Of a DNA stretch of 58,169 nucleotides, positions 2,897 to 46,996 are shown piece by piece. Both the position numbers and the translations under genes were made by a program. Source of the stretch: Burkholderiaceae bacterium (lineage in GTDB: Bacteria; Pseudomonadota; Gammaproteobacteria; Burkholderiales; Burkholderiaceae_C); NCBI GenBank assembly GCA_036752305.1, contig DAIOSZ010000001.1, positions 2,556-60,724 of the forward strand. Direction: 5' to 3'. Numbering within the stretch: position 1 is the first letter of the stretch; each line of letters starts with the position of its first letter. The notes under the pieces were generated by a model, which was given only the letters and a program-made list of their open reading frames with translations, ran no database searches and was not told the DNA's origin.

Positions 2897-3373
2897 ATGC
2901 CGCCCTCCCCCTTGACTCACTTTGACGCGCAAGGCCAGGCGCACATGGTGGACGTTTCCGCCAAGCCAGCCACGCACCGCATCGCCCGCGCGGCGGGCCG
3001 CATCTCGATGAAGCCCGAAACCTTGGCGCTGATCGCCAGCGGTTCAGCCAAGAAGGGCGATGTTCTTGGCGTAGCGCGTCTTGCCGGCATCATGGGCGCA
3101 AAAAAGACCAGCGAGCTGATCCCGCTGTGCCACCCGATCGCGCTGACCCGTGTGGCCGTGGAGTTTGAATTGATCCCGGGCGAAAGTGCCGTCGAATGTG
3201 TAGCCACCACCGAAACCATAGGCCCGACGGGCGTTGAAATGGAGGCGCTGACGGCTGTTCAGGTGGCACTGCTGACGGTTTATGACATGTGCAAGGCGGT
3301 GGATCGGGGGATGGTGATTGAGTCCGTCGTGCTGCGGAGCAAAACCGGTGGCAAGTCCGGTGAATGGAGCTAG
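2897..3373 (+). CDS. moaC: cyclic pyranopterin monophosphate synthase MoaC
   Basis: 158 aa with typical MoaC motifs ([36 protein letters not shown]). Confidence 0.95.
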
Positions 3374-4131: not shown

Positions 4132-4147
4132 ACCAACTTTCCTACGG

Positions 4148-5866
4148 CTATTTTAGGTTGACCATATCATCTTCATTTTTCCTTGTTTCCCACTCATCGT
4201 ATAGCCCTGCACACGCTTTTTCGGAAAGCAACCAACAACTGCGCTCTGCCCATATTCTAGCTTCGTCAGAGTAGCCATTTACTCGATAGGCACCAATTAC
4301 TTTTCGTATAGAAAGGGGTGCTGTTGCATACAGCATAAGATTCTCCCAATGCTGGATCTCGTTTTGAGACATGCCCGTTCGAGGCGTGGCCCGAAACAGA
4401 GCAATGGCATCCGGCCAGTCAACCAGCACAATGGTTCTAGGAGGTGATTCGTCATGCCCGCTCCCAATCTTCGCCACCTGGAAACGCAGTTCAGAAAACG
4501 CAGCCTCAACCCGCAAATAATCAATCACAATTACAACCGTAATCACCAGCATCCCCACCACGACGCCTGTCATCCAATTCTTCGATATCCGAACGATTGG
4601 CTTGGGAGGGCCTAGCCTTCCAGCTATCAGTCCGAGTATGCAGCCGAATGGGAGGAGAAAATACGGATAATTGAGTGGAAACTCTAGCATCGCATGCACG
4701 CCGAAAGCCAATACGCAACCAAGTATGCAGTAGTCCACCAACGAAGAAGTCGCCTTTACGAGACGACTCAGCCATACAATACTCAAGACAAGTATGAGCG
4801 CGGCAATCGGCCATCCCACCCACAACGCCAAGTCCAATATTAAATTGTGACTTTGCTCGAAATAGATATTTCCAATCGCCTCTTTAAAATCAAGATAAAC
4901 CCCAAAATATCCCAAATTGCTCTTTCCCCAACCATAACCGATCCAGAAACTTTTCGTGCTCGCAGCGAGGGCCATTTGCCACAGCATCAGGCGAATTTCA
5001 CCTGCATTTCGATCAACCAGGGTGCTTTGAATATCTGCATTGAGAATACGTCCAAGCATGCCCTGCGAGAATAGCGCGACAACGTAGCACCCAAATAAAA
5101 TCCAAATAGTGGTTTTGACTCGACCCGAAACATCCTTCGGCGGAAAAAACGAACAAGCAAGCACCCAAAGACTGAGCGTTAGTAAAGCATGGCGAGATTG
5201 CGTCATGGCAATACCCCAAAGAATCCAGCCACATCCAAGCAACGCGCTCAGGTTTCCGATCCGCCGAGAGCCCCACAACAATCCAATTCCCATTATTCCG
5301 CACAAGAGCAATGTTGCCAGTTGATTGGGCTGTGCAAGATTGGCGTACGGCCTAGAACCCTCATAAAAGGGGAGTATCCACACTTCGAAAAGATCAGGGT
5401 TTTTTGCATAACCCAGCCATTGATAACTGGCAATACCGGTAGATCCGATGGCGGCAAATGTCATGGCCATGATCACCAAATAGCCAATCGAAATCTCTTG
5501 TCCGCATGCTTCTGATGCGTAGCTCAGCTGATAACACACTGCAAATCCAAACAGCACAAGCGCAGTAATGATCGCATTACTTTTCAGCGGCATTAAGCCA
5601 ATGCTGTACTGCAATAGCGGCGTGATCGCCAAAAGGAGCAGCGCCAAGCTGGCCCTAGGAACTGCCAATTGTTTCGGCATGCCGCGCAGACAGTAAATAC
5701 CAATGAATGCCAGCGCAATGGACGCCCAGGCATTAGAGTGAAACGCCATCCAAGGCGGGTAATGATTGGGTATCAACCACGCGCACATCAGCAGCGCAAG
5801 AAGAATGGATTCCCAAACAGCCGCGTCGCGCCACCCGATGGTGCGCTTCATTCCGAAATCATGCAT
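4148..5866 (-). CDS. pilin O-oligosaccharyltransferase, TfpO/PilO/PglL-like (O-antigen-ligase/Wzy_C family)
   Basis: Polytopic membrane protein with the NHYPPW..FHSN motif of PglL/Wzy_C-type ligases and a soluble C-terminal domain. I chose the ATG at 5866 (alternative 5851) because the listed 6052 start overlaps pilA and the pilA terminator. Confidence 0.75.
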   Translation of the reverse strand: MHDFGMKRTIGWRDAAVWESILLALLMCAWLIPNHYPPWMAFHSNAWASIALAFIGIYCLRGMPKQLAVPRASLALLLLAITPLLQYSIGLMPLKSNAIITALVLFGFAVCYQLSYASEACGQEISIGYLVIMAMTFAAIGSTGIASYQWLGYAKNPDLFEVWILPFYEGSRPYANLAQPNQLATLLLCGIMGIGLLWGSRRIGNLSALLGCGWILWGIAMTQSRHALLTLSLWVLACSFFPPKDVSGRVKTTIWILFGCYVVALFSQGMLGRILNADIQSTLVDRNAGEIRLMLWQMALAASTKSFWIGYGWGKSNLGYFGVYLDFKEAIGNIYFEQSHNLILDLALWVGWPIAALILVLSIVWLSRLVKATSSLVDYCILGCVLAFGVHAMLEFPLNYPYFLLPFGCILGLIAGRLGPPKPIVRISKNWMTGVVVGMLVITVVIVIDYLRVEAAFSELRFQVAKIGSGHDESPPRTIVLVDWPDAIALFRATPRTGMSQNEIQHWENLMLYATAPLSIRKVIGAYRVNGYSDEARIWAERSCWLLSEKACAGLYDEWETRKNEDDMVNLK

Positions 5867-5874
5867 TTCAAATA

Positions 5875-5902
5875 GCAAATAGAAAAGGCCGCTCACGCGG
5901 CC
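5875..5902 (-). terminator. rho-independent terminator/attenuator after pilA
   Basis: On the minus strand, GGCCGC-GTGA-GCGGCC (5887-5902) is followed by TTTTCTATTT. It lies between the pilA stop (5928) and the tfpO-like start. Confidence 0.6.
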
Positions 5903-5927
5903 TATTCTATTGAATGTTGATTGTATA

Positions 5928-6407
5928 TCAGGATTGCTTGCAGGAGCCTGGCAGGTATTTTCGATCCAATGGGTTACTGGCTGCTGGGCCACACCGCCAT
6001 TCGGTAATCGCCTGTCCTCCGTTGGTGTTGCCAGCCACTGCACTAGAGCCAATATACGGCTTTAGTTCAATCTGATTGGTCGTAGTGGTTACGCTGCCGC
6101 CCAACGCGCCGGCACTGGCAGTGACCGTAATCACGCCATTCGTGTCAGAAGAACCTCCGGTAACCATCTTGGTGGGGGAAATCGTGCAGCCAGCAATAGC
6201 CGACTGCGCGTCAGCAACCGGCGAACTCTGCAATGACTCTGTAACCGTTGTACGGCAAGAGGACGCCGCCAGAATCACCTCAGAAACCCGTGCACGCACG
6301 GTGTAGTCCTGATATGCCGGCAACGCGACCGCAGCCAGAATACCAATAATGGCCACCACGATCATCAGTTCGATGAGCGTGAAGCCTTGTTGCAGTTGAC
6401 GCTTCAT
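5928..6407 (-). CDS. pilA: type IVa major pilin
   Basis: It has the class III signal and N-methylation motif ([35 protein letters not shown]). A C-terminal disulfide loop ([18 protein letters not shown]) is followed by KQS. Confidence 0.95.
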
Positions 6408-6562: not shown

Positions 6563-8968
6563 TCACTTGATGCAAACCTGCCTGACCTGCTTCACATCTG
6601 TCAGTCCCATCAGCACCTTCTCCATACCGTCCATCTTCAAGGTTCGCATGCCGCCTTCCACAGCCTTGGCAAAGACTTCGGCCACGCGGGCGCGTTCTTG
6701 AACGAGCTTCTTGATGGCGTCGTCGGCAATCAGCAGTTCATGCAGACCGACTCGGCCCTTGTAGCCTGATCCGGCGCACTTGGCACAGCCCACCGCCTTG
6801 TACAGCTTGAGCTGCCCATCCTGCGCGTAGCGCTTGGTCCATCCGTCCAGCAGACGCTTGTACTCGCCGTCGGTATCGGCTTTCCAGGCAGCCGTGCGGC
6901 CCAACTCTTCTGCGTATTCCATGACGAAGAGGTGCAGTTCGTCCTCTTCCGGCACATACGCGGCCTTGCAATCGCCGCACAGACGCCTGGCCAGGCGCTG
7001 GGCCAGGATGCCGAGCAACGCGTCCGCGAAATTGAACGGGTCCATGCCCATGTCCAGCAGGCGCGTGATCGACTCAGGCGCGGAATTCGTGTGCAGCGTT
7101 GAAAACACCAAATGCCCGGTAAGCGAAGCTTCCACGCCCATCGACACGGTTTCCTTGTCGCGGCTTTCGCCGACCATGATGATGTCGGGGTCGGCACGCA
7201 GAAAGGCGCGCATGACCAGCGCAAAGTCGATGCCGGCCTTTTTATTGATTTGTACCTGACGCAAACCCTTCTGGGTGATTTCCACCGGGTCTTCGGCCGT
7301 CCAAATCTTGGTTTCCGGTGTGTTGAGATGGTGCAGGATGGAGTGCAGCGTGGTGGTCTTGCCGGAGCCCGTCGGTCCACAAACATAGAAAAGACCATAG
7401 GGCTTTTCTATGGTTTTGACCAACCGCTCGCGGTTGTGGTCCGTCAAACCCAGTTTTTCCAGCGGAATCGGCTCGCCTGCCGCCAAAATACGCATCACCA
7501 CATCTTCAACACCGCCGGCGGATGGAATGGTGGCAACACGCAATTCAATGTCGAGTGGTCCGAAACGCTTGAATTGGATTTTTCCATCCTGCGGCTTGCG
7601 CTTCTCGGAAATGTCGAGGTCACACATGATCTTCAGGCGCGTGATCATGGCCTGGCGAAAATGCGCGGGAACCTCGATGTAGGGTTGCAGGACGCCGTCG
7701 ATGCGCAGGCGCACACCCGTCTTGGCTTTCCCGGGCAGCGGCTCAATGTGAATGTCAGAGGCTTTTTGCTGGTACGCGTCAACAATGACCTTGTTGACGA
7801 ATTTGACCAGCTCATTGTCTGCCGCAAGCGATGCGACCGCGTCCTCGCCAGCGGGTTCATCATCGGCCATGGGCTGCAGGTCGGCCAACAACTGGTCAAT
7901 CGTCCCAGCCGCCCCCGAGCCATAAATCTGCTCGACGGTTTGCGCGAACTCACGCTGCGTCGTCACTTTCAGCACCAGGTGCGGCTGCTGCCGGAAAACC
8001 TGCTGAACCACCCGGCCCGCGCGCACGGCTTCCGGGTCCAGGCACAAAATTACCAGTCCCTCGGGTACCTGTTCCAGCGGCAGCCAGCCTTGTTCTTCAA
8101 TGAATTCGCGCTTGAGCGGGTTGTGCAGGTTGTCGATGCGCAGCCGCGCATTGGCCGCCCCTTCGTACGCAACGCCAAAAAACTTGCCCAGCGCATGACC
8201 AACGTCGCTGGCCGTCAACCCCAGCTTGCCGATGAGCACATCTTCCACGTGAACCTGTTCGTCACGCGCCCGCTGCACACATTCCTGCAATTCCGCCTGC
8301 GTTACACGCCCATCGGTGACGAGTGCGTCGTATTTGGTGGGCTTGTGCTGGGCAACGAATTGCCCTCCCGAGCGCTGGCGCTGCCGGATCGCCGTGGCCA
8401 GCGTCTTGCACAACTGGGCCGCGCCATCCACGTCAAGCGCAGAAAATGGACGATCGGCTTTGTTGTTGATGATCTGCAGCACGCCGTGCAACTGCTTCCC
8501 GTCCAAAATGGGCTGCACCAGCATCTGCTTGGTGCGGTATCCGGAGCGCTTGTCAACCTCCTGCAAAAAAGTAAGGTCCGGATGGAGCCTGCGCAGATCT
8601 TCCTCGACGTAGACATCGGCGATGTTGAGCGGCTGTCGGCTCATGGCCACGTAGCCGGCAAGACTTTGCGTGCCCACCGGTAGCTTGAGTTCCCGCGCGG
8701 TGTTCAGGCCCGTTTTGACCTTGGAGACAATGGAGGCCTGATCCTCACCCATCGCGTACAGCGTGAAGCGATCGGCGTTGAACAGCCGACAAATGTCGCT
8801 GCTCAGCTCAAGCATGAGCTGATCAAGGTTCTCGGTGTCGTGGATGCGCGTGGTGACCTGTTGCAACTGGCGGAAAAACAGCGCCTCGAACGAAAGCCCA
8901 CGCTTGTCGCCGCCTTCTGTCCTTGGAAAACCGCCGAGCGTGGAGTTGGGTGCCTCAACGCCGTTCAC
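6563..8968 (-). CDS. PilB/GspE-family secretion/pilus ATPase with N-terminal GAF domain (801 aa)
   Basis: Residues ~25-190 look like a GAF domain. A T2SSE_N-like region follows, then Walker A (GPTGSGKTTT), Walker B (IIMVGESRD), a His box (GHLVFSTLHTN) and a tetra-Cys motif (CGDC...CAKC). The GTG start at 8968 overlaps the upstream stop. Confidence 0.85.
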   Translation of the reverse strand: MNGVEAPNSTLGGFPRTEGGDKRGLSFEALFFRQLQQVTTRIHDTENLDQLMLELSSDICRLFNADRFTLYAMGEDQASIVSKVKTGLNTARELKLPVGTQSLAGYVAMSRQPLNIADVYVEEDLRRLHPDLTFLQEVDKRSGYRTKQMLVQPILDGKQLHGVLQIINNKADRPFSALDVDGAAQLCKTLATAIRQRQRSGGQFVAQHKPTKYDALVTDGRVTQAELQECVQRARDEQVHVEDVLIGKLGLTASDVGHALGKFFGVAYEGAANARLRIDNLHNPLKREFIEEQGWLPLEQVPEGLVILCLDPEAVRAGRVVQQVFRQQPHLVLKVTTQREFAQTVEQIYGSGAAGTIDQLLADLQPMADDEPAGEDAVASLAADNELVKFVNKVIVDAYQQKASDIHIEPLPGKAKTGVRLRIDGVLQPYIEVPAHFRQAMITRLKIMCDLDISEKRKPQDGKIQFKRFGPLDIELRVATIPSAGGVEDVVMRILAAGEPIPLEKLGLTDHNRERLVKTIEKPYGLFYVCGPTGSGKTTTLHSILHHLNTPETKIWTAEDPVEITQKGLRQVQINKKAGIDFALVMRAFLRADPDIIMVGESRDKETVSMGVEASLTGHLVFSTLHTNSAPESITRLLDMGMDPFNFADALLGILAQRLARRLCGDCKAAYVPEEDELHLFVMEYAEELGRTAAWKADTDGEYKRLLDGWTKRYAQDGQLKLYKAVGCAKCAGSGYKGRVGLHELLIADDAIKKLVQERARVAEVFAKAVEGGMRTLKMDGMEKVLMGLTDVKQVRQVCIK

Positions 8969-9779: not shown

Positions 9780-12029
9780 CTACTTGCTGTCGAAGTTGGT
9801 CGCTCCATCCCAGGACAGGTCAAGCGGCGCTTCGCGCATGTCGATGACCCGCTGCGAGAACAACTGATAGAGACCATTTTCCGGGGCCATGCGCTTGAGG
9901 TTGAACAGGTGCAACTCGGCCTGGTCCCAATCCTGGGCGCGAAAGGCCTTGAGAAACGCCCCCCACAACTTGAGTTCATCACCAGCTTTCGCCGCATCAC
10001 CCTCGCGCAACGTGTAGATCGACACGGCCTGCTGCTTGCCCTTGACACGCACGCGGTCGAGTTCCTGCCAGGGAAGATCTGGCGCGGCGCGGCGTGTCTG
10101 CTCGCTGGCCACGATGTCCACGTCGTAAAAGCGCGTCAGCCCTTCGAGCCTTGCGCCAAGATTGACCGAGTCGCCGATCACCGTGTAGGCGCGGCGCGAA
10201 TCCGACCCCATGTTGCCCACGCACATGGAACCGGTATTGAGGCCGATGCCCACACCGACTTCCGGCAAGCCCCTCGCGCGGTGGTCGGCATTCACTTCGT
10301 TGATTGCATCCAGCATCTGGCGCGCCGCGCGGCACGCCAGCGCCGCGTGGTCGGGTTGGTCCACCGGAGCGCCCCAGAACGCCATCACGCAATCGCCCAT
10401 GAACTTGTCGGTGGTACCCATGTTGGAATCGATCACCTGTGTGAGCCGCGAGAACAGATTGTTCAGCAAGCCCTGCAATGCCACCGGATCCATGCGTTCG
10501 GACAGTTTCGTAAACCCGCGCATGTCGCAGAACATCACGGTCAGCTCCTTGTTCTTCGCCTCCATGCTGTAGCTCTCGGGACGCTTGACCATCTCCTCAA
10601 CGAGCGCGGGCGGTACGTAGGTGCCAAACAAGCGCGCCAAACTGCGCTTGGATCGGCTTTCAACGAAATACCCGTAGCTCATGTTGAGCGCAAAGGCCGC
10701 CAGCACCAGCAAAACCGAAGCCGCCAAGGGCATCACCAGCCCCTGACTCTCGTACAGCCACCAATTGAGCCCGGACAAAGCCGCTAGCACGCCCACGCAC
10801 ACCAGCACGGCGATGGGCGCGGTCACCGCCGGCAGCACGAATGCCAGCAGCAGCCCCACGGCCAGCAGCATGAGAACGTCATAGCCCATCGCATAGTCGG
10901 GAACAACGGGCAGGCGGTCATCCAGAAGCCCCGACAGCAGGTTTGCGTGAATTTCCACCCCTGGATACACCTGGCTGACAGGCGTCACGCGCAAGTCCTG
11001 AAGGCCCGGCGCCGTGGTTCCAACAAACACCACGCGCCCCTGCAATTGTCCCGGCGTCAGCTTGCCTTCGATGATGTCGGAGGCGGAGACATACCGAAAA
11101 GACCCGCCCGCCTCTCCGCCCTGCCCGCGAAAAGGCACCAGTGTCGCGACGCGGCGATCTACTGGCAATGCCTGAAAATCCTTGCCATCGCGGCGCAACT
11201 TGACGCTTTCAAGATGCTGATAACTACGGCCAAGAAAGCGCTCGGGCGGGAACCCGGGCAGCACCTGTGGCATGCCCTGCGTGAGCCGATAGACAGCCAG
11301 CGCCAGCGATTCGTAGTACCCACCTTTGTATTCCACCAGCAACGGCACCGCCCGCACCATGCCGTCGCCGTCCACGATCGGGTTGAAGAATCCGCCCAGC
11401 GGCGCCGCGCTCGCAAAGCGCGCGAGATTCGACCCGTAGCCGTTCCAACTCGTGAAACGGATCGGCCGCCCCTTGAGCGCGGCGGCGTCCATCACCGGCG
11501 CGGGGATGACTCCGGAAGTTCGTCCGTCCCGGTCACTCGTGAAGTAATAGCCCATCACGACGGCCCGATTCTTCAGCGACTGGGCAAACTGCCCGTCGTA
11601 GTCCAGCTTGGGGGCTAACTCTCCGAACTTCTCGACAAAATTCGCGTCGTCCTTGAGAGCCCCTTTCGAGAGGTCCTCCAACCGCCTCAGGCCCGAGCTT
11701 TCATCCGGCTCCGCAAACACCACGTCAAACGCCGCCACCGCGATCTTCTGCTCGTCAAACAGCGCGTCGATCATGCGCGCAACCTTGTCGCGTGGCCAAG
11801 GCCAGCGGCCCACCGCAGCCAGGCTCTTTTCGTCGATGTCAACGATGACGATCCGGTCGTCAAGCGTCTGCGGCATCGTGGCCCGCAGCCGCGCGTCGTA
11901 GATCACATCGTCGAGTTGCTGCACCAAGCGCAGCGGCTGCACTTCCATCGCGTGCAGCAGCGCAAACAGCAGCGGCACCAACGTGAGCGCCACCCGTGGC
12001 CAAGACTTGAAAATGGCGCCAACGGACAT
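9780..12029 (-). CDS. CHASE2 sensor domain-containing class III adenylate/guanylate cyclase
   Basis: N-terminal CHASE2 signature (IVDIDEKSLAAVGRWPWPRD), then TM helices. The C-terminal cyclase domain has both metal Asp residues (FCDMRGFT, FMGDCVMAFWGAP) and VNLGARLE. Confidence 0.9.
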   Translation of the reverse strand: MSVGAIFKSWPRVALTLVPLLFALLHAMEVQPLRLVQQLDDVIYDARLRATMPQTLDDRIVIVDIDEKSLAAVGRWPWPRDKVARMIDALFDEQKIAVAAFDVVFAEPDESSGLRRLEDLSKGALKDDANFVEKFGELAPKLDYDGQFAQSLKNRAVVMGYYFTSDRDGRTSGVIPAPVMDAAALKGRPIRFTSWNGYGSNLARFASAAPLGGFFNPIVDGDGMVRAVPLLVEYKGGYYESLALAVYRLTQGMPQVLPGFPPERFLGRSYQHLESVKLRRDGKDFQALPVDRRVATLVPFRGQGGEAGGSFRYVSASDIIEGKLTPGQLQGRVVFVGTTAPGLQDLRVTPVSQVYPGVEIHANLLSGLLDDRLPVVPDYAMGYDVLMLLAVGLLLAFVLPAVTAPIAVLVCVGVLAALSGLNWWLYESQGLVMPLAASVLLVLAAFALNMSYGYFVESRSKRSLARLFGTYVPPALVEEMVKRPESYSMEAKNKELTVMFCDMRGFTKLSERMDPVALQGLLNNLFSRLTQVIDSNMGTTDKFMGDCVMAFWGAPVDQPDHAALACRAARQMLDAINEVNADHRARGLPEVGVGIGLNTGSMCVGNMGSDSRRAYTVIGDSVNLGARLEGLTRFYDVDIVASEQTRRAAPDLPWQELDRVRVKGKQQAVSIYTLREGDAAKAGDELKLWGAFLKAFRAQDWDQAELHLFNLKRMAPENGLYQLFSQRVIDMREAPLDLSWDGATNFDSK

Positions 12030-23505: not shown

Positions 23506-24084
23506 ATGATGGGCTCGCTGCTGGACAACCTCACCGCCAAGGGCCGGCGCAAGCGCGCCGTGCAGGAATCGCCCACCGCCGAGTTGGCCGCCCGCATGCT
23601 GCGCGCGCCCAGCGCCCTCATCCAGTTGTCCGAGGACGACGCCCGCGTCATCGTCAGCTACATGGAGCCGCGGCGCTTTGATGCCGATGCGCGCGTGATG
23701 ACCGCTGGCGACACCGAGAACACCGACTACATGCTGTTGGTCCTTGAAGGCGCCGTGACGGTGGAGAGCGTGAACGTGAGCCGCAAGCTGCCGATCACGG
23801 TGACCGTGCTCGGCCCGGGCAGCATGCTCGGCGAGATGAGCCTGCTCGACGGCTCGCCGCGCTCGGTCACCTGCACCGCTGGCGACGATCTGCTGTGCGC
23901 GCAATTGACGCGCGAGGGCCTGCAGGAACTGATTCAGGACGACTCCATCCTCGGCATCAAGCTGCTGATCGCCATCGGCATGCGCATGGCCGAGCGCCTG
24001 CGCGACAACACCGACAAGCTGTGGCGCTACGCCCGGCTCACCCAAGCTATGCAACAGGAGATCGACCGCCTGATGCCCACTTGA
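23506..24084 (+). CDS. stand-alone cyclic-nucleotide-binding (CNB/Crp-like effector) domain protein
   Basis: CNB beta-roll with GPGSMLGEMSLLDGSPRSVTCTA (GE..L....PRS.T phosphate-binding cassette). No HTH output domain follows. Confidence 0.8.
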   Translation: MMGSLLDNLTAKGRRKRAVQESPTAELAARMLRAPSALIQLSEDDARVIVSYMEPRRFDADARVMTAGDTENTDYMLLVLEGAVTVESVNVSRKLPITVTVLGPGSMLGEMSLLDGSPRSVTCTAGDDLLCAQLTREGLQELIQDDSILGIKLLIAIGMRMAERLRDNTDKLWRYARLTQAMQQEIDRLMPT

Positions 24085-36909: not shown

Positions 36910-37899
36910 TCATTCCAGGCTCGCGCCGGTCTGGCGCACGACTTTCGTCCAGCGCTCGATTTCGGATTTGATATAGCGGCCGTAGGCCTCGGAGGTCGAA
37001 CCCAGCGGATCGGCGCCTTGCTGCGCGAGCTTGGCGCGCACATCGGGCGCGGCCAGTGCCTTGCCCAACTCGGCGTGGAGCCGACGCACGATCTCCGGCG
37101 GCGTCTTCGCGGGCACGGTGAGGCCCTGCCACGCGCCCACCTCGAAGCCGGGCATCACCGTCTCGGCCAGCGTGGGCACGTCGGGCAGCAACGCGCTGCG
37201 GTTGGCGCCGGTGACGGCCAGCGCGCGCAGGCGCTTGTCACGAATGAACGGCAGCGACGAGTTGAGCGTATCGGTCGTGAACTGCGTCTGCCCCGCCACC
37301 AGATCGGTCAGCGCCGGCGCGCTGCCCTTGTAGGGCACATGCTGGGCGCTCAGGCCATTGGCTTGCAGGAACATGTGCGCGCCCAGGTGCGTGATGTTGC
37401 CGTTGCCCGCCGAGCCATAGCTCAGCTTGCCGGGATTGGCCTTAAGGTATGCGACGAACTCCTGGACCGTCTGCGCAGGCACCGAAGGATGCACGCTGAG
37501 CACCAGCGGAATCACCGCGCACAGCATCACGGGTGCGAGGTCGGCCGCCGGGTCATAAGCCAGCTTTTTGTACAGCGCGGGGGACAGCGCGATGGCCGAG
37601 GTGTTGTAGAACAGCGTATAGCCGTCGGCGGGTGCCTTGACAACGAATTCGGCGGCGATGTTGCCATTGGCGCCGGGCTTGTTGTCCACGACCACGCTCT
37701 GGCCCATCTGCTCGCCCAGTTTCTGCGCCAGCACGCGCGCCACCAGATCCGTCGGCCCGCCCGGCGGAAACGCAATCACCAGACGAATCGGTTTGTCGGG
37801 GTAGCCGCCAGGCGCCTGCGCCCAGGCCGAGGGCATGGCAAGAGTGACGGGCAGTGCCGCGAGAGTGAAGGAACGGCGGGACAACGGTTTGGCGGTCAT
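36910..37899 (-). CDS. Bug/TctC-family substrate-binding protein
   Basis: Signal peptide plus PIRLVIAFPPGGPTDLVAR and VVVDNKPGANGNIAA. Confidence 0.9.
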   Translation of the reverse strand: MTAKPLSRRSFTLAALPVTLAMPSAWAQAPGGYPDKPIRLVIAFPPGGPTDLVARVLAQKLGEQMGQSVVVDNKPGANGNIAAEFVVKAPADGYTLFYNTSAIALSPALYKKLAYDPAADLAPVMLCAVIPLVLSVHPSVPAQTVQEFVAYLKANPGKLSYGSAGNGNITHLGAHMFLQANGLSAQHVPYKGSAPALTDLVAGQTQFTTDTLNSSLPFIRDKRLRALAVTGANRSALLPDVPTLAETVMPGFEVGAWQGLTVPAKTPPEIVRRLHAELGKALAAPDVRAKLAQQGADPLGSTSEAYGRYIKSEIERWTKVVRQTGASLE

Positions 37900-39608: not shown

Positions 39609-40598
39609 TCACTCTGCTTTGACGCCGGCCGCGCGAATCAGCTCGGCCGTGCGCGGGAAATCGGCCTTGTAGCGTTCGGTGAATTCGGCGGGCGTGTTGG
39701 CCAGCGGCTCAAAGCCAAAGGCCGTCAGCCGCGCCGAGACCTCGGGCTGGCGGGTGATCTCGCGCAGCGCGGTCGCCCAGGTCTCTTGCCAGGGCGCGGG
39801 CAGCCGCGCGGGCGCGTACAGGCCGACCCATGAATCCACGTCGAAGCCCGCAAACCCCTGTTCGGCAAACGTGGGCACCTGCGGCAGCGCGGAGACGCGT
39901 CGCGTGCCGGCAATGCCCAGCACCTTCATCTTGCCGCTTTGCACATGGCCTCTTGCGGTGGCGGGGTTGGCCCAGGCGAAGTCGAGGTTCTCGCCAAACA
40001 AGTCCTGATGGACCTGCGCCTCGGCCTTGTAGGCCACATGCGTCAGCGGCACGTCGGTCTGGCGCTTGAGCAATTCGCCGAACAGATGCGCCGTCGAACC
40101 GTTGCCCCAGGTACCGTAGTACAGCGGCTTGCCCTGGCGGCGGCCGACCTCGATAACTTCTTTCAGGTTCCCGTATGGCGCGCTGGCCCGCGCCACCAAC
40201 ACCGCCCCGCCGGTGGCAACCATCGACAGCGGCGTGAAATCGGCCACGGGGTCATAGGGCATCTTGGCCTGGAGGATGGGCAGGTTCACGTGCGTGAGCG
40301 GCAGCGTCATCATCACGGTATGGCCGTCCGGGGCCGCCTTGGCCACGAAGTCCGCGGCGACGATGCCGCTGGCGCCCGGCTTGGCATCCACGATCACCGG
40401 CTGGCCCCAACGTTGTTGCAGCCGCTCGGCGTACACGCGCGCCAGGGTATCGATTGGCCCGCCTGGCGCGCCAAACGGCACGATGCGCACCGGGCGGGTC
40501 GGAACCGGCGCTGGCGTCTGCGCCCGAACGCCCGGCAACGCGGCAATGCCGCCCAAGCCAGCGAACACCAGCGAGCGGCGAGAAAACGGGTGGGTCAT
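39609..40598 (-). CDS. Bug/TctC-family substrate-binding protein
   Basis: The ATG at 40598 gives MTHPFSRRSLVFAGLGGIAALPGVRAQ. Motifs RIVPFGAPGGPIDT and VIVDAKPGASG follow. Confidence 0.85.
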   Translation of the reverse strand: MTHPFSRRSLVFAGLGGIAALPGVRAQTPAPVPTRPVRIVPFGAPGGPIDTLARVYAERLQQRWGQPVIVDAKPGASGIVAADFVAKAAPDGHTVMMTLPLTHVNLPILQAKMPYDPVADFTPLSMVATGGAVLVARASAPYGNLKEVIEVGRRQGKPLYYGTWGNGSTAHLFGELLKRQTDVPLTHVAYKAEAQVHQDLFGENLDFAWANPATARGHVQSGKMKVLGIAGTRRVSALPQVPTFAEQGFAGFDVDSWVGLYAPARLPAPWQETWATALREITRQPEVSARLTAFGFEPLANTPAEFTERYKADFPRTAELIRAAGVKAE

Positions 40599-40697
40599 CG
40601 CATGGCTCCCGAAGGGCGGTGGGGCCACCCCGCGCGACCCCGCCAGGCCATTATGCGGCGCTCCAACCGGCGCCGCTTGTCCCGCGGACGCGACGGG

Positions 40698-41339
40698 TCA
40701 CCAACGCAGCAATCGCGGCCCCAGCCAAGCGCCCACGACCACGGGCAAGGCCATGCCCAGCACGTACCACACGGCCAGAAACGGCGCCGTCAGCTCAGGG
40801 CAGTGCAGAGCGTACACGGCCGCGCCAGTGCCGCCAGCCAACAGTCCGGCCGCCGCGCCGGCCCATCGCGGTCGGGTGGGCGCCAATTGGCGTAACGCAA
40901 ACAGCGCGGCCACGAACATCGGCAGGCCAATCCAGCCTACGCTCCACAGGCAGGCCTGCCAGGTCTGTCCCCACAGCAACACAGGCCGCTCGGCCCTCGG
41001 CGCATCCAACCACTGCACGAGCCCCATGCTCCATACCAACGCCAGCAGCACCGCCACCACCGCGACCGCCCCACGCGCCGACAAGCCCGGGCGCCCCAAT
41101 CGCGCCACGGCCCAGCCTCCCGCCAGGGCCATGCCCAGCGGCAATCCGATCTTGAACCAGAACATCGGCCAGGCGGTGGCCGCCGCCAGATCCCGGCGCA
41201 GACCATAGAACGCGAACATGAGTACCAGCGCGCCCAGCAAGCCCAGCCCCGCCCAGCGCGCCACCCGGGCCCCGGCGTGTGTCGGCGGCACGGGCTGCAG
41301 GCCAGTAGACAGAAAGCCGATCAGTTCATCGGTCTTCAT
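40698..41339 (-). CDS. nrsF: NrsF-family (DUF1109) membrane anti-sigma factor
   Basis: The ATG at 41339 (ATGA overlap with the sigma gene stop) gives the [18 protein letters not shown]-terminus typical of NrsF. Six TM helices follow. Confidence 0.8.
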   Translation of the reverse strand: MKTDELIGFLSTGLQPVPPTHAGARVARWAGLGLLGALVLMFAFYGLRRDLAAATAWPMFWFKIGLPLGMALAGGWAVARLGRPGLSARGAVAVVAVLLALVWSMGLVQWLDAPRAERPVLLWGQTWQACLWSVGWIGLPMFVAALFALRQLAPTRPRWAGAAAGLLAGGTGAAVYALHCPELTAPFLAVWYVLGMALPVVVGAWLGPRLLRW

Positions 41340-41908
41340 GCCCGGTCTCCCACTGTCGAGCAGGCCTGCGCGAAACGCAGGGCCAATGCCTTCAGACCAC
41401 GGTGGATGCCCACCTTGACTGCTGACTCGGACAGCCCGGTCAGCCGCGCGGTCTCGGCCACCGACAGGCCCTCGATCTTGACGCACTCAATCGGCCTGCG
41501 CTGCTTGTCCGGCAAGGTGTGCAGCATGCCCAGGACATCGCGCCGGGCGTCGCTGGCCTCGGTGTCGCTGGCGGCAAACACCGCCAGCTCGTCGTCCAGC
41601 GGCACATGCAGCGCCTCGCGCCCCGAGCGAGCGCGCAGCAGGTCGATCAATTTGTAGCGCGCGATCGCCTGTACCCAGGCCACGAACACCTGGTCAGGTT
41701 GGTAGGTGTGGCGCTGGTTGTGCACCGCCAGCAGACATTCCTGCACGAGATCCTCCACGTCATCGGGCCAGCCGAACAGGCGCCGACCCACCCAGGCGCG
41801 CAGATGCGTGGCCAGCCGTTGCAAAAAGCGCCGGTACGCGGTTTCGTCGCCATCCAGGCTGCGCAACAGCAGACCGCGCAGCTCAACTTCGACATCCGGC
41901 TTTGACAT
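41336..41908 (-). CDS. ECF (group IV) RNA polymerase sigma factor, SigF-type
   Basis: Region 2 ([17 protein letters not shown]) and region 4 HTH ([28 protein letters not shown]). It is paired with an nrsF-like gene. Confidence 0.9.
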
Positions 41909-41927
41909 CCATCACTCCGTATCCCTA

Positions 41928-41953
41928 TTCGCGCCCGCCGTGGTTGCGGTTAC
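41928..41953 (-). promoter_or_regulatory. ECF-type promoter GTAACC-N16-CGAA upstream of the sigma gene (autoregulation)
   Basis: The minus strand reads GTAACC GCAACCACGGCGGGCG CGAA. The -10 element lies about 20 nt upstream of the sigma ATG (41908). Confidence 0.6.
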
Positions 41954-41994
41954 AGCCTCCGCAAAAAAAAGACAAGTCTTTCTCAGCATCGACT

Positions 41995-42020
41995 GTAACC
42001 AGACCGGTGAACGGTGCGAA
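41995..42020 (+). promoter_or_regulatory. ECF-type promoter GTAACC-N16-CGAA upstream of the DUF2282 precursor gene
   Basis: The plus strand reads GTAACC AGACCGGTGAACGGTG CGAA, 60 nt upstream of ATG 42081. It has the same hexamer, tetramer and spacing as the divergent copy. Confidence 0.65.
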
Positions 42021-42080
42021 AGAGGATGCAACCGCGCCATATCGGCCCGGTTCGATCTCAACCTGTCAAGGAGCTCAAGC

Positions 42081-42365
42081 ATGACCACCCTATCCAAAAC
42101 CCTGACGGCCGCCGGCCTCGCCGCGCTGGTCGCCACCGCCGTGCAGGCCCAGACACCAATGGGTGACAAGGCCGCCGCGATGGAAAAGTGCTACGGCGTC
42201 GCCATGGCCGGCAAGAACGATTGCGCCGCGGGCCCAGGGACCACCTGCGCCGGCACGTCCAAGACCGACTACCAGGGCAATGCCTGGAAAAACGTCCCGG
42301 CAGGCACCTGCACCGGCATCAAGACGCCCAAAGGCATGGGCTCGCTGGCGCCCATCAAGGCCTGA
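42081..42365 (+). CDS. bufA: DUF2282 secreted Cys-containing peptide, bufferin-type RiPP precursor (BufA1-like)
   Basis: AAGGAG RBS. Sec signal peptide [23 protein letters not shown]. The core has four Cys in contexts EKCYG, NDCAAG, TTCAGT and GTCTG. Confidence 0.85.
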
Positions 42366-42391
42366 CCGTCGCCCTCCCCCGCGTGCCCACC

Positions 42392-43243
42392 ATGTCCGCC
42401 CCGCTGTGCGCCGGCCTCGGCCTCAAGCCCGAGCACTTCGACCAGGCGCTGGCCTGTCGCCAGTCGGGCCTGTGGTTCGAGATCCATCCGGAAAACTACC
42501 TGGTGGACGGTGGGCCGCGCCTGGCCTGGCTGGAGGCCATTCGCAGCGAGCATCCGCTGTCGGTGCACAGCGTCTCGCTGTCGCTGGCGGACAGCGAGCC
42601 GCCGGACCAAGCGCGGCTGACCCGGCTGGCGGCGTTCGTGCGGCGCTTTCAGCCAGCCCTGGTGTCCGAGCATCTGGCGTGGTCGTCCTGGCGGGGCCAG
42701 TACCTGCCCGACCTGCTGCCCTTTCCGCGCACCCACGAGGCGCTGTGCGTCGTTGCCGCGAATATTGATCGGCTGCAGAACGCGCTGGGCCGCATCGTCG
42801 CCATCGAGAACCCGGCCCACTACCTTGATCTGCCGGGTCATGACTGGCCGGAGCCAGAATTCCTGGCCGAACTGGTCCGTCGCACCGGCTGCCGCCTGCT
42901 GCTGGACTTGAACAACGTACGGGTATCGGCGCACAACCTGGGCACGACACCCGCCGACTATCTGCGCGACTTTCCCCTTCATGCGGTCGTTGAGCTGCAT
43001 CTGGCGGGCTACAGCGCCGACCCGAGGCTCGGCGATGCGCTGTGGATCGACTCGCACGACGCTCCCGTGTGCGAGGACCTGTGGTCCTTGCTCGCCGGGC
43101 TGCTGGCTCGCACCGGCCCGCTGCCCACCCTGATCGAACGCGACGGGCATCTCCCCGACTTCGCCGAACTGCGGCTGGAAGCCGAGCACGCGCGGCGCCT
43201 GCTGACAGTCCAGGCCGACAGCGCGGCGCTGGTGGACGCATGA
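42392..43243 (+). CDS. bufB: DUF692 / MNIO (multinuclear non-heme iron oxidative) enzyme, BufB-like
   Basis: GLGLKPEHF...WFEIHPENYL..GGPRL..LEAIR..HPLSVHSVSLSL is the typical DUF692 N-terminus. Start is ATG 42392. Confidence 0.9.
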   Translation: MSAPLCAGLGLKPEHFDQALACRQSGLWFEIHPENYLVDGGPRLAWLEAIRSEHPLSVHSVSLSLADSEPPDQARLTRLAAFVRRFQPALVSEHLAWSSWRGQYLPDLLPFPRTHEALCVVAANIDRLQNALGRIVAIENPAHYLDLPGHDWPEPEFLAELVRRTGCRLLLDLNNVRVSAHNLGTTPADYLRDFPLHAVVELHLAGYSADPRLGDALWIDSHDAPVCEDLWSLLAGLLARTGPLPTLIERDGHLPDFAELRLEAEHARRLLTVQADSAALVDA

Positions 43244-44013
43244 ACCCCACTCTGGCCGAGTTTCAGCGCCAGTTCGTCCAGGCTCTGCAAGACGATGGCG
43301 GTGCCGCCGCCGACCCTGCATGGGTCCGCCAAGGCGGCTTTGCCGTCTACCGCAACACCGGCCGCCTGGCCTGCCGGGACGCGCTGCGCGCCAACTACCC
43401 CGTGGTTGCGCGGCTCGTGGGCGCCGACTGGTTCAACGCCGCCGCGGAGCACTATCTGCGCGATCATCCGCCCGCGGACAGCCGGCTGTTGCTGTACGGC
43501 GCGCGATTTCCCGACTTTCTGGAGCCGCTCGCGCGCGCGCATGACCTGCCTTATCTGGTCGAGGTAGCCCGTCTGGACCGCGCCTGGACCGAAGCGCACG
43601 CCGCTGCCGACGCCTCCCCCTGGCAGGCCGATCAACTGGCCGCGCTGCCTCCCGAGGCCTTGGCGACTCTGGTGCTCAGGCCGCACCCCGCTGCCCGCTG
43701 GCACTGGAGCGCCCAGGTTCCGGCCTTCACCCTCTGGTCGCGCCACCGCGCGGACGATGAGCCGAGTTGGGGCGATCTGATTTGGCAAGGCGAGGGCACG
43801 CTGCTGACGCGCGCCTGGGGGGTCGTTCGCTGGGAACCGCTGTCTCGGGCAGGCTGCGCCTTTTTGCAAGCCTGCGCCGATGGCCTGCCCTTGCCCCGGG
43901 CGCTGCAAACCCTTGATGCCCTGGAAACCCAGGTGGACCGGGGCGCGCTGCTCGGTCGCTTGCTGCAGCAGGGTGCTTTTCAACCGCCGTCCGATGAGAG
44001 AACCTCCGCATGA
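43240..44013 (+). CDS. bufC: DUF2063 protein, MNIO partner (BufC-like)
   Basis: The ATG at 43240 overlaps the bufB stop (ATGA). The N-terminus LAEFQRQFVQALQDD is typical of DUF2063. Confidence 0.8.
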   Translation: MNPTLAEFQRQFVQALQDDGGAAADPAWVRQGGFAVYRNTGRLACRDALRANYPVVARLVGADWFNAAAEHYLRDHPPADSRLLLYGARFPDFLEPLARAHDLPYLVEVARLDRAWTEAHAAADASPWQADQLAALPPEALATLVLRPHPAARWHWSAQVPAFTLWSRHRADDEPSWGDLIWQGEGTLLTRAWGVVRWEPLSRAGCAFLQACADGLPLPRALQTLDALETQVDRGALLGRLLQQGAFQPPSDERTSA

Positions 44014-44450
44014 ACGCCTTCACCGCCTGGCACAACGCCATGCTCCTCAAACTGGAATCCCTGAGCCCCGCCGACCTGCTCGCGCTGGCTGCCCGCCTGG
44101 GGATCGCCGCGGTGTTCTGGCAATCCGGCCGCACCAAGGTGGACGAGCAGTTCCACGTGACCGACAGCGCCATCGCGCTGTTCACCGACGAATTCAAGCT
44201 CCCCTTGCTGGACCCGGCATTCGCTGCCCATCTGGCCGCCTACGCCGAGCATCTGTTTCCGCTGCTCCTGGCGCTCGGCCTGCTCACGCGGCTGTCGGCG
44301 CTGGCGCTGCTGGGCATGACGCTGGTGATCCAGATATTCGTCTATCCGGATGCCTGGCCCACCCACCTGAGCTGGGCAGCCATTCTGCTGTTGCTACTGC
44401 ACCATGGCGGCGGGCGCCTGTCAATGGACGCGGTGCTCGGACTGCGCTGA
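44010..44450 (+). CDS. DoxX-family membrane protein
   Basis: ATGA overlap with the upstream gene. Four TM helices and a DoxX pattern (RLGIAAVFWQSGRTKV). Confidence 0.85.
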   Translation: MNAFTAWHNAMLLKLESLSPADLLALAARLGIAAVFWQSGRTKVDEQFHVTDSAIALFTDEFKLPLLDPAFAAHLAAYAEHLFPLLLALGLLTRLSALALLGMTLVIQIFVYPDAWPTHLSWAAILLLLLHHGGGRLSMDAVLGLR

Positions 44451-44538
44451 GGTCCTGCACGCCCGGCGCCACGGCTGCCCACGCCAACCAGATCACCCAC
44501 GTTCACCGGGGGCGGGCGTCGATCATGCCCTCGGGCGG

Positions 44539-45477
44539 CTATGGCTGCTGCTCGGCGCGCCGCTGTGAGCGGCGCGTGGGCGGCATGAGCTCGTTGCTGG
44601 TCACGCCGCCAGCGGGCGCGGCGTTGTTGGCCGGGTCGCCAGCGTTGGTCACTTCGCGCGAGGCCGCCGTGTTGCCGCCCGAGACGCCAAGGCGCCCGCC
44701 CGTGCCCAATCCGCCGCGCACCTCCTGCGCCTGATAGTTGCGCAACGCCACGACCATCTGGTTGTACGAATCGATGAACGCCGCGACGATGAGCTTGCCT
44801 TCGGGCGTGTTGGTAAAGCCGCCCGCGCCGCCGCCACCCAAGCCGCCGAACAGCCCACCGAACAGGTTGAAGTCGGTGTTGCGCGAGCTCCCCTCGGCGG
44901 CGGCGAGCTGCACGCCGGAACGGTTGTCCACCAGGGTCAGCATGGTCGAGGCGTCGCTGAATTGCACGCTGCCGGCCAGCGCGCCCGCCAGGCCGCCGGC
45001 GAAGCGGCCCAGCGCCGCGCCCAGGCCACCGGTGCCTTGCTGGCTGAAGGTGATCGTCGGATTCATCGTGTAGTCGGCCGACACCATCTGGCCGCGCCCA
45101 AAGTTGCTGCCCTGGCGCAACTCGCCGCTTTGCTGCAACGCGCGTTCCTGCGCCATGTTGCGCATGGCCGCGCCGCGCTCGACCACGACGAAGCAGCCCG
45201 ACTGCTGAACCAGCATCCGCAGCACCGGCAGCGTCGATTGCAACCGATGGCTTTGCATCTGCATGAACCAGGGCTGGGTGCTGTCTTCCACCAGCGCGAT
45301 GGTGCCCAGCGCGGCGGGACACCGTTCTAGCTGGGTGTTCGCGTTGTGGCTGCCGGCTCCGGCTGCCGAGCCGGTGGCGGCCGTGCGCGCGTTCTCATTG
45401 CCGATGGTCTGCGCGGCGGCCTGACTTCCCAGCAGCGCCGTCGCCAGCGCCGCGACCATCCAAGGGGTTTTCTTCAT
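44539..45477 (-). CDS. secreted CsgG/HfaB-like protein with Gly-rich C-terminal region
   Basis: AAGGAG RBS before ATG 45477 and a signal peptide ending AAAQ. The order of IALVED.., GCFVVVERG, SADYTMNPTITF and LTLVDNRSGVQ resembles the CsgG fold; this call is tentative. Confidence 0.5.
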   Translation of the reverse strand: MKKTPWMVAALATALLGSQAAAQTIGNENARTAATGSAAGAGSHNANTQLERCPAALGTIALVEDSTQPWFMQMQSHRLQSTLPVLRMLVQQSGCFVVVERGAAMRNMAQERALQQSGELRQGSNFGRGQMVSADYTMNPTITFSQQGTGGLGAALGRFAGGLAGALAGSVQFSDASTMLTLVDNRSGVQLAAAEGSSRNTDFNLFGGLFGGLGGGGAGGFTNTPEGKLIVAAFIDSYNQMVVALRNYQAQEVRGGLGTGGRLGVSGGNTAASREVTNAGDPANNAAPAGGVTSNELMPPTRRSQRRAEQQP

Positions 45478-45580
45478 ACCCGTCACTCCTTCATCATTGA
45501 AGAAGATTATGGGAGGAAAACCCCCGGCCAGACCGTAGCCAAACGTTTCCGATTTTGGTGAATATGCCCGTTGCCGCAGC

Positions 45581-46996
45581 CTACATCGAGAAGATCTTGC
45601 CCGGATTCATGATGCCTTGCGGGTCGAGCGCGCGCTTGAGCGTGCGCATCATCGCCACCGCGCCGTCACCGGCTTCGTTGATCAGAAAATCCATCTTGTG
45701 CAGGCCCACGCCATGCTCGCCCGAGCATGTGCCGCCCAGCGAGAGGGCGCGCGCGACGAGTTGCCGGTTCAACTGTTCCGCGCGCTCGCGCTCGGCGTCG
45801 TCGAGCGGATCGATGAGATAGCCAAAGTGGAAGTTGCCGTCGCCCACGTGGCCGACGAGGAAGTACGGAATGCCGCTGGCGTCAGCCTCGGCCACCGAGT
45901 CGAGCAGGCAGTCGGCCAGGCGCGAGATCGGCACGCAGGTGTCGGTGGAAATGCAGCGGCAGCCCGGCCGGCTTTGCACCGCCGCAAAATATGAGTTGTG
46001 CCGCGCGGTCCACAGGCGCGTGCGCTCCTCGGGCGTGGTCGCCCACTCAAAGCCCGCGCCGCCATGTTCAGCGGCAATGGCCTGCACGGTCTCGGCCTGT
46101 TCCTTGACGCTCGCGGGCGAGCCATGGAATTCCATCAGCAGCATCGGCGTCGGCGCCAGGGACAGCTTGGCGTAGCGGTTGACCATGGCGACGGTGTTGG
46201 CGTCGATCAGCTCCACGCGGGCGATGGGCACGCCAAGCTGGATCGTCTGGATCGTGGTGTTCACCGCGTCGGCGATGCTGGGAAACGAGCACACGGCCGC
46301 CGAGATCGCCTCGGGCAGCGGATACACGCGCAGCGTGACCTCGGTGATGATGCCCAGCGTGCCCTCGCTGCCCACGAACAGGCGCGTGAGGTCGTAGCCG
46401 GCGCTGGACTTCTTGGCCCGCGTGCCGGTGCGGATGACCTCGCCCTGCGCCGTCACCACCTCCAGCGCCAGCACGTTTTCGCGCATCGTGCCGTAGCGCA
46501 CGGCGTTGGTGCCGCTGGCCCGGGTGGCCGTCATGCCGCCAATGCTGGCGTCGGCGCCAGGGTCGATGGGGAAAAACAGTCCCTCGTGCTTGATCGCCTC
46601 GTTGAGCGTCTTGCGCGTCACGCCGGGCTGCACCGTCACCGTCAGATCCTCCGGCTGCGAGACCAACACGCGGTTCATGCGCGAGACGTCGACGCTGATG
46701 CCGCCCTGGACCGCCAGCAAATGGCCTTCCAGCGAGGACCCCACGCCAAAGGCGATCACCGGCGTGCCATGGGCGGCGCACAGCTTCACGGCGTCCTGCA
46801 CGTCCTGCGTGCTTTCGGCGAACACCACGCCGTCGGGCGGCGGCACGGCCACGAAGGCCGACTCGTCGCGACCGTGCTGCTCACGCACGGCGGTGGCCAC
46901 GGAAAAGCGCTCGGCAAAGCGCGCGCGCAGCGCCTCCAGCAGGGCAGCGGGGGCGGTGCGGGGCGCGAGTTGCGCGCCAGATAACGGTGCATTCAT
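45581..46996 (-). CDS. FAD-linked oxidase (GlcD / D-lactate dehydrogenase family)
   Basis: 471 aa with an FAD-binding PCMH domain (VIAFGVGSSLEGH) and a C-terminal GGTCSGEHGVGLHK motif. Confidence 0.9.
   Translation of the reverse strand: MNAPLSGAQLAPRTAPAALLEALRARFAERFSVATAVREQHGRDESAFVAVPPPDGVVFAESTQDVQDAVKLCAAHGTPVIAFGVGSSLEGHLLAVQGGISVDVSRMNRVLVSQPEDLTVTVQPGVTRKTLNEAIKHEGLFFPIDPGADASIGGMTATRASGTNAVRYGTMRENVLALEVVTAQGEVIRTGTRAKKSSAGYDLTRLFVGSEGTLGIITEVTLRVYPLPEAISAAVCSFPSIADAVNTTIQTIQLGVPIARVELIDANTVAMVNRYAKLSLAPTPMLLMEFHGSPASVKEQAETVQAIAAEHGGAGFEWATTPEERTRLWTARHNSYFAAVQSRPGCRCISTDTCVPISRLADCLLDSVAEADASGIPYFLVGHVGDGNFHFGYLIDPLDDAERERAEQLNRQLVARALSLGGTCSGEHGVGLHKMDFLINEAGDGAVAMMRTLKRALDPQGIMNPGKIFSM

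Follow-up and report, generated by a model that had tools for sequence, protein, structure and literature searches.

A probable Buf1-type bufferin operon with a divergent SigF/NrsF pair in an uncultured Burkholderiaceae bacterium

Background

We analyzed a 58,169-nucleotide stretch of a metagenome-assembled genome (MAG) from an uncultured Burkholderiaceae bacterium (GenBank assembly GCA_036752305.1, contig DAIOSZ010000001.1, positions 2,556 to 60,724 of the forward strand), hereafter the window, and found that the six genes at 40698-44450 very probably constitute a Buf1-type bufferin (gig) operon, bufABCD, under the control of a divergently transcribed pair, SigF and NrsF, comprising an extracytoplasmic function (ECF) sigma factor of the ECF16 group and its anti-sigma factor. 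The observed gene set and domain matches are far beyond chance. The architecture of such systems, their chemistry and their link to SigF/NrsF have already been published: Buf1 clusters with adjacent sigma factor and NrsF genes are catalogued as a major organization among thousands of bufferin clusters (PMC12452194), thousands of genomes are known to carry the architecture, and a 2026 survey of "captophorin" clusters counted 21,424 precursor peptides. The present locus is an ordinary, intact case that raises no new question. The one mildly new element lies in the comparison of promoters and in what this means for the literature on Cupriavidus metallidurans: the locus offers a clean betaproteobacterial case, in which a pair of ECF16 promoters can be read directly, and which thereby aids the interpretation of gig regulation in that organism.

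Gene layout and identity of the locus

Gene coordinates were taken from a six-frame listing of open reading frames (ORFs) and from direct reading of 40600-44600. Four genes lie on the forward strand: bufA (42081-42365; 94 amino acids, aa), which encodes a bufferin-1 precursor of the DUF2282 family; bufB (42392-43243; 283 aa), which encodes a cytoplasmic multinuclear non-haem iron oxidase (MNIO, DUF692); bufC (43240-44013; 257 aa), which encodes a DUF2063 partner protein with a C-terminal domain resembling the recognition element (RRE) of RiPPs (peptides that are made on ribosomes and modified after translation); and bufD or doxX (44010-44450; 146 aa), which encodes a DoxX-family membrane protein. 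On the reverse strand are sigF (41336-41908; 190 aa), encoding an ECF sigma factor of the ECF16/SigF-RpoQ type, and nrsF (40698-41339; 213 aa), encoding a membrane anti-sigma factor with about six hydrophobic spans in its hydropathy profile and two cysteines of interest, Cys130 and Cys180.

All six genes are intact. The stop codon of bufB and the start codon of bufC share an ATGA at 43240-43243, as do those of bufC and bufD at 44010-44013, and a third overlap of the same kind joins the stop of sigF to the start of nrsF (41339-41336). The bufA ATG is preceded at a distance of 8 nucleotides (nt) by an AAGGAG ribosome-binding site (42068-42073), and G+C content at third codon positions is 0.79-0.86 across all six frames, which matches the expectation for real genes in a genome of 67% G+C. 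Longer ORF starts, giving products of 219 aa for bufA, 351 aa for bufB, 323 aa for bufC and 262 aa for nrsF, were dropped because they overlap the adjacent genes, have no support from homologue alignments and leave out of account both the AAGGAG site and the coupling of genes by ATGA.

An earlier note, drawn from this DNA without database searches, had assigned these proteins to DUF2282, DUF692, DUF2063, DoxX, NrsF and ECF sigma families. In a Pfam hidden Markov model search, with scores in bits read against the curated cut-offs and with NCBIfam equivalogs as a narrower test, every one of these assignments scored above its Pfam cut-off. The two ATGA overlaps that it had placed at 43240 and 44010 can be read in the sequence (that of sigF and nrsF is absent from it), and the coordinates and strands confirm its statement that the buf genes diverge from those of the ECF sigma factor and the NrsF anti-sigma factor. 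The likeness that it drew to the Caulobacter buf and Cupriavidus gig loci is also upheld, as gene order, sizes and divergence agree, BufB passes the equivalog NF050167, and a SigF motif precedes both operons.

For comparison we assembled 80 related loci from species-representative genomes, and extracted and aligned the homologues (81 sequences including this locus). The order bufABCD is kept among them: bufA and bufB are found in 80/80, bufC in 79/80, and a bufD homologue 3' of bufC in 73/80. A divergent sigF is seen in loci L001-L013, L015 and L017. Elsewhere in the window we found no paralogues of the six proteins, only a weak match to SigF (E = 0.016); the ORF concerned, at 23599-24045 on the reverse strand, probably codes for another sigma factor of ECF type that is unrelated.

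The family had further been described in the earlier note as barely annotated. This no longer holds for the family, since PF05114 has been renamed, NCBIfam provides a BufB model, and some homologues already carry the label 'HvfC/BufC family peptide modification chaperone'; it does hold for the MAG record of this 60.7-kb contig, in which the identical proteins HMS04210-HMS04214 and their neighbor are named DUF2282, DUF692, 'DNA-binding domain-containing', DUF1109 and sigma-70 family. Five proteins labelled DUF or "DNA-binding" in that record can be renamed BufA, BufB, BufC, BufD and NrsF.

The precursor peptide and the proteins that would modify and accompany it

BufA matches DUF2282 (PF10048) with 88.6 bits against a cut-off of 22.4. 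Its four cysteines, Cys37, Cys48, Cys56 and Cys77 (Cys14, Cys25, Cys33 and Cys54 of the core), are invariant in 81/81 homologues, and their 11/8/21 spacing is that of Cys12/23/31/52 in Caulobacter BufA1, in which Cys-II and Cys-III are converted to 5-thiooxazoles while Cys-I and Cys-IV form a disulfide (PMC11626156). Later work confirmed the thiooxazole assignment throughout the class. The only hydrophobic stretch of the protein is N-terminal (residues 7-23) and is followed by an AXA-type site, a combination that indicates a signal peptide rather than a membrane anchor; there is neither a twin-arginine motif nor a lipobox in the N-terminus. The predicted Sec signal peptide spans residues 1-23 (42081-42149, forward strand), with cleavage between VQA and QT, and its removal would leave a core of 71 aa, whose predicted monoisotopic mass is about 7048.32 Da unmodified and about 7038.25 Da in the mature form. 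The BufA precursor contains no EGKCG repeat. Homologous bufferin binds copper 1:1 in a 2N/2S site, Cu(II) with a dissociation constant of about 1e-15 M and Cu(I) with one of about 1e-19 M; in the homologous system copper is the inducer, protection against copper is conferred, formation of the 5-thiooxazoles requires both BufB and BufC, and export is by the Sec route.

BufB matches the MbnB_TglH_ChrH family (PF05114, formerly DUF692) with 303.1 bits against a cut-off of 25. Among the NCBIfam equivalogs it passes NF050167, MNIO_BufB ("MNIO family bufferin maturase"), at 335 versus 310 bits, and it fails those for HvfB, MbnB, ApyH and ChrH, which assigns it to the MNIO superfamily's bufferin branch; the Hvf/oxazolin, methanobactin, ApyH and ChrH branches were each considered and ruled out by the same cut-offs. 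The nearest solved structure is 3BWW (E = 2e-29). In alignments to 7TCR and 3BWW, H94, E139, D172, N175, H203, D220 and H222 of BufB stand opposite His90, Glu133, Asp163, Asn166, His192, Asp208 and His210 of MbnB, whose iron ligands we took from PMC9060507. Two further residues, H59 and E249, occupy the positions of MbnB His54 and Glu239 by comparison of motifs with 3BWW, not in the printed MbnB alignment. All nine are invariant in 81/81 homologues.

BufC carries the DUF2063 domain (PF09836) at residues 7-94, with 78.7 bits against a cut-off of 27.2. Searches of PDB by sequence, using phmmer and also hmmsearch with a 47-sequence BufC profile, returned zero matches even at E = 1. An AlphaFold2 model of the protein (predicted local distance difference test score, pLDDT, of 92.9) was compared with PDB structures by Foldseek, and the best matches were the MNIO partner TglI (8HI7_A, template modeling (TM) score 0.63) and the DUF2063 protein NGO1945 (3DEE, TM 0.52/0.65); weak matches to the lasso-peptide RRE proteins 6JX3_B and 5V1U were also obtained. 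The modeled fold fits the published picture of BufC as a DUF2063 domain joined to an RRE-like domain.

These observations bear on the older database readings, according to which no RiPP would be made here at all: the DUF2282 protein would sit integrally in the membrane, that of DUF2063 would be a regulator that binds DNA, and that of DUF692 an enzyme akin to sugar isomerases or endonuclease IV. Such readings survive in the Pfam texts, where PF10048 is a 'predicted integral membrane protein' and PF09836 a 'putative DNA-binding domain', and in GenBank, where BufC is a 'DNA-binding domain-containing protein'. However, the lone hydrophobic stretch of BufA ends in an AXA site and is a signal peptide, the model of BufC finds its best match in an MNIO partner, and direct biochemistry on homologues demonstrates peptide modification. 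These readings have already been refuted for the homologues; for the present locus we regard them as hardly tenable.

BufD matches DoxX (PF07681) with 66.7 bits against a cut-off of 23.6 and has hydrophobic spans in its hydropathy profile.

SigF, NrsF and a conserved pair of promoter motifs

SigF scores above cut-off against the Pfam models Sigma70_r2, Sigma70_r4_2 and Sigma70_ECF, and reaches 275.5 bits against NCBIfam PRK12536 (cut-off 250). NrsF matches PF06532 over its full length with 230.2 bits (cut-off 26.8). Its Cys130 and Cys180 are invariant in 18/18 homologues, and their 50-residue spacing is that of C131 and C181 in Caulobacter NrsF, which have been tested functionally by mutation (PMC3511200). 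Judging from the order of the hydrophobic spans, both cysteines would face the periplasm.

In Caulobacter, Kohler et al. worked out the sequence that SigF binds, GTAACC-N16-CGAA, by means of 5'RACE (rapid amplification of the ends of cDNA), promoter fusions and a sigF mutant (PMC3511200). The window contains exactly two exact matches to this motif, versus a mean of 0.03 in shuffled sequence, and both lie inside the 172-bp region between sigF and bufA, one on each strand and one facing each operon. The reverse-strand copy (41928-41953) stops 19 nt short of the sigF ATG and is a predicted SigF-dependent promoter of sigF-nrsF, which would imply autoregulation; the forward-strand copy (41995-42020) ends 60 nt before the bufA ATG and is the predicted SigF-dependent promoter of bufABCD. 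The predicted bufA leader, of about 55 nt, is similar in length to that of Caulobacter bufA1, whose transcription starts at -61 (PMC3511200).

We then examined the 15 orthologous loci with a divergent sigF, from genera that include Acidovorax, Pseudomonas, Trinickia, Paraburkholderia and Caulobacter. Allowing at most one mismatch, the sigF-side motif is kept in 15/15 of these and the buf-side motif in 14/15, while the 16-nt spacers vary freely, a pattern that amounts to a phylogenetic footprint. The motifs are thus present and conserved, and they would be used as promoters at this locus as they are in Caulobacter. In the two Paraburkholderia loci L011 and L012 (approximately positions 2979-3580) the gap between sigF and bufA measures about 800 bp and holds a second minus-strand SigF motif, which suggests that an extra SigF-controlled gene has been inserted there.

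When one mismatch is allowed, the window holds three SigF-motif sites against 1.37 expected, a number reached by 16 of 100 shuffles. The additional site, GTTACC-N16-CGAA at 6139-6164 on the reverse strand, lies about 87 nt 5' of a gene for a PglL-like protein; being within chance, it was rejected as a SigF target and is probably not one. A consensus scan found no sigma-70-like promoter in 40400-45700, and terminator-like sites are no commoner than in shuffled sequence (4 versus 3.0). Folding, applied to look for an attenuator, a terminator or a leader structure, put none of three segments ahead of shuffles: z was +0.86 for the spacer between bufA and bufB, +0.33 for the stretch that follows bufD and -1.23 for the leader predicted for bufA.

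Bearing on the gig locus of Cupriavidus metallidurans

The gigPABT/rpoQ-rsqA divergon of C. metallidurans CH34 (Rmet_4685-4682, on the chromid) belongs to the same bacterial family and has an identical divergent layout (PMC10304878). Its products share 69% (BufA), 59% (BufB), 44% (BufC), 62% (BufD, there GigT), 62% (SigF, there RpoQ) and 42% (NrsF) identity with those described here, and CH34 GigP, likewise 94 aa long, has four cysteines and a core that measures about 72 aa. We found that the intergenic region between gigP and rpoQ also carries an exact GTAACC-N16-CGAA on each strand, at 2982-3007 (reverse) and 3042-3067 (forward) of the extracted locus L081 (NC_007974.2, 1310439-1318209, reverse complement). 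The leader from motif to gigP is longer in CH34, at about 118 nt versus 60 nt to bufA in our locus. The rpoQ-side motif ends at 1315228, 9 nt 5' of TSS_1315237, a published transcription start that is RpoQ-dependent and metal-induced, and includes GAATAACGGA, which the authors of PMC13492112 placed at -10. The same authors gave the ECF16 consensus as AATTCG at -35 and GGTTAC at -10, and concluded that no ECF16 motif is present before rpoQ or gig. The Caulobacter motif and this consensus are reverse complements of each other, which would explain why the motif was missed. From the sequence, then, it looks as if the motif is present in CH34 and was searched for in the wrong orientation owing to an error in PMC13492112. 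Its presence weakens the main published argument against direct control by the sigma factor, and RpoQ probably drives gig directly in C. metallidurans, contrary to the 2026 report.

The alternative argued for C. metallidurans gig is that expression depends mainly on some other promoter, distal or of the housekeeping or heat-shock kind, and if this applied here sigF-nrsF would be a mere neighbor of the buf operon. It draws on the studies of that organism, the nearest relative with experimental data, which report no RpoQ-dependent gig promoter; RpoQ-dependence of gig could not be demonstrated in them and deletion of rpoQ raised gig expression (PMC10304878, PMC13492112). Yet in our locus an exact SigF motif faces bufA, with its position and orientation kept across orthologous loci while the spacer diverges; an exact motif likewise faces gigP in CH34, where the published consensus is reversed; and the region around our operon yielded no sigma-70-like promoter. 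We accordingly consider this alternative improbable and retain direct SigF control of bufABCD, although the higher gig expression reported for the rpoQ deletion mutant does not follow from such control.

A model of the system, and points that weigh against it

Combining the features of the locus with what is known of its homologues, we envisage the following scheme. In unstressed cells the six-span NrsF would hold SigF at the membrane, as in Caulobacter. A periplasmic stress would disturb NrsF (too much copper or some other metal that reacts with thiols is the likeliest, and an oxidant is possible), probably via Cys130 and Cys180, and so release SigF. RNA polymerase carrying SigF would then start at the two back-to-back GTAACC-N16-CGAA promoters, raising expression of sigF-nrsF by positive autoregulation along with that of bufABCD, with bufB, bufC and bufD translationally coupled through the ATGA overlaps seen in the sequence. 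By analogy with Caulobacter BufA1, BufC would bind BufA in the cytoplasm and present it to the iron enzyme BufB, which would use O2 to turn Cys48 and Cys56 into 5-thiooxazoles. Export by Sec, removal of the 23-residue signal peptide and formation of a Cys37-Cys77 disulfide would follow, and the folded 71-residue peptide could chelate Cu(I) and Cu(II) in a 2N/2S site and thereby buffer periplasmic copper. The DoxX membrane protein may have an accessory role, possibly a redox one. The chemistry of the product and the inducing signal are thus transferred here by analogy, and the locus suggests an uncultured Burkholderiaceae organism equipped with a periplasmic copper-buffering peptide.

Besides the Cupriavidus expression data given above, several points weigh against this picture. 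The locus is read from the MAG of an uncultured Burkholderiaceae organism; bufB has no recognizable Shine-Dalgarno sequence; no intrinsic terminator was found 3' of bufD; and the cleavage site of BufA, between VQA and Q, was set by the AXA rule. NrsF scores 145 bits against the NCBIfam NrsF equivalog, below its 300-bit cut-off; given that PF06532 is matched along the whole protein, we attribute the shortfall to divergence from a seed that is alphaproteobacterial. BufC falls under the HvfC cut-off (32 versus 142 bits) and DoxX under that of HvfX (52 versus 80 bits), as is expected for members of the Buf rather than the Hvf branch, for which Buf-specific models of BufC and DoxX do not exist. Finally, the inducers of SigF/NrsF vary by lineage: Cu, Cr and Cd act in Caulobacter, and the Azospira pair responds to reactive chlorine species (PMC4436054), so that copper as the signal at our locus is an extrapolation.

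This last point leads to the possibility that the cluster is as described, but that what its switch responds to is an oxidant (a reactive chlorine species such as hypochlorite, or reactive oxygen) or a soft metal other than copper (Cd, Cr, Au), and that the peptide serves mainly to defend against these and not to buffer copper. In Azospira suillum the activation of SigF/NrsF by reactive chlorine is specific, and the divergent operon under its control is another one, yedYZ-mrpX (PMC4436054); the responses first observed for Caulobacter SigF were to chromate and cadmium (PMC3511200), gold induces the Cupriavidus operon, and DoxX homologues have been tied to protection from oxidative or sulfur stress. 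Against this, Caulobacter buf1 reporters respond to Cu and not to Fe, Zn or Mn, and bufferin 1 picked copper from a mixture of metals; moreover, our locus has neither msrPQ/yedYZ nor mrpX genes linked to it, and the window has no third copy of the SigF motif beyond chance. A signal and function other than copper are on balance unlikely, and we favor copper buffering.

A more speculative elaboration, which we likewise hold to be rather unlikely, is that the system forms a closed periplasmic homeostat, in which the NrsF cysteines sense the same Cu(I) or oxidant that the thiooxazole thiols of the bufferin capture, and DoxX links the thiol/disulfide state of the peptide to the quinone pool. Were this so, the bufferin would directly quench its own inducing signal, and the circuit would not be a simple on-switch.

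Relationship to other known systems

The six genes have the same order and divergent orientation as buf1ABCD (CCNA_03363-03366/CC3254-3257) and sigF-nrsF (CC3253-CC3252) of Caulobacter vibrioides, and the sizes of the bufA-D, sigF and nrsF products are close: 93, 280, 254, 150, 179 and 214 aa in Caulobacter versus 94, 283, 257, 146, 190 and 213 aa here (PMC3511200, PMC11626156). Common to the two are the 11/8/21 cysteine spacing, the GTAACC-N16-CGAA promoters and the cysteine pair of NrsF. Identity to the Caulobacter-type locus L015 is 72% for BufA, 58% for BufB, 38% for BufC, 62% for BufD, 49% for SigF and 39% for NrsF. The two differ in that the host of our locus is betaproteobacterial (a Burkholderiaceae MAG), the residue after Cys-II is Ala here and Lys in Caulobacter, and the core has 71 rather than 68 residues. 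Unlike Caulobacter, our organism has no second cluster (buf2) within the 58 kb of the window.

More distant are the hvfABC(X) oxazolin/captophorin clusters of Haemophilus influenzae and its relatives (including those for fontiphorin and gonophorin), which have the same pair of MNIO and DUF2063 proteins, often together with DoxX. Their precursors, like bufferins, are Sec-exported, bear 5-thiooxazoles and bind copper; however, they contain EGKCG repeats in place of the DUF2282 fold, and BufB fails the HvfB equivalog NF003818 at 191.6 versus 360 bits. In the methanobactin system, MbnABC, an MNIO with the same set of iron ligands also oxidizes cysteines of a ribosomal peptide to yield a copper chelator. 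It differs in its partner protein, MbnC, in its short leader-dependent precursor without a Sec signal, and in its product, which is secreted for copper uptake rather than retained for periplasmic buffering. BufB reaches 54.9 versus 325 bits against the MbnB equivalog TIGR04159, and its partner and precursor here are of the DUF2063 and DUF2282 families.

Genomic surroundings

The flanking genes are ordinary chromosomal ones, encoding TctC-family receptors, a Rieske oxygenase, a CsgG-like lipoprotein, an FAD-linked oxidase and a cobalamin adenosyltransferase, and include no other metal-resistance genes. Convergent with bufD lies a gene on the reverse strand (44539-45486) whose 315-aa product has an N-terminus resembling a signal peptide and a weak CsgG/LpoB-like domain, and is rich in glycine over its C-terminal half; we found no evidence tying this gene to the buf operon. 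On the other side, genes for TctC/Bug-family periplasmic receptors at 36910-37899 and 39609-40628, both on the reverse strand, lie on either side of the Rieske oxygenase gene and one of dehydratase type. To have several Bug-family receptors is typical of Burkholderiales, in line with the assignment of this MAG to Burkholderiaceae.

Near the start of the window, a reverse-strand gene (4148-6052) encodes a 634-aa membrane protein with PglL_A, Wzy_C and Wzy_C_2 domains, of the type that functions in protein O-glycosylation or as an O-antigen ligase. It adjoins genes for a T2SSE/MshE-type ATPase with a GAF domain (6563-8968) and for an adenylate/guanylate cyclase with a CHASE2 domain (9780-12029), and is overlapped by a stretch of low G+C content (4001-6000; 0.49 versus about 0.67). 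Horizontal transfer may have brought in this low-G+C segment as a module for pili or glycosylation.

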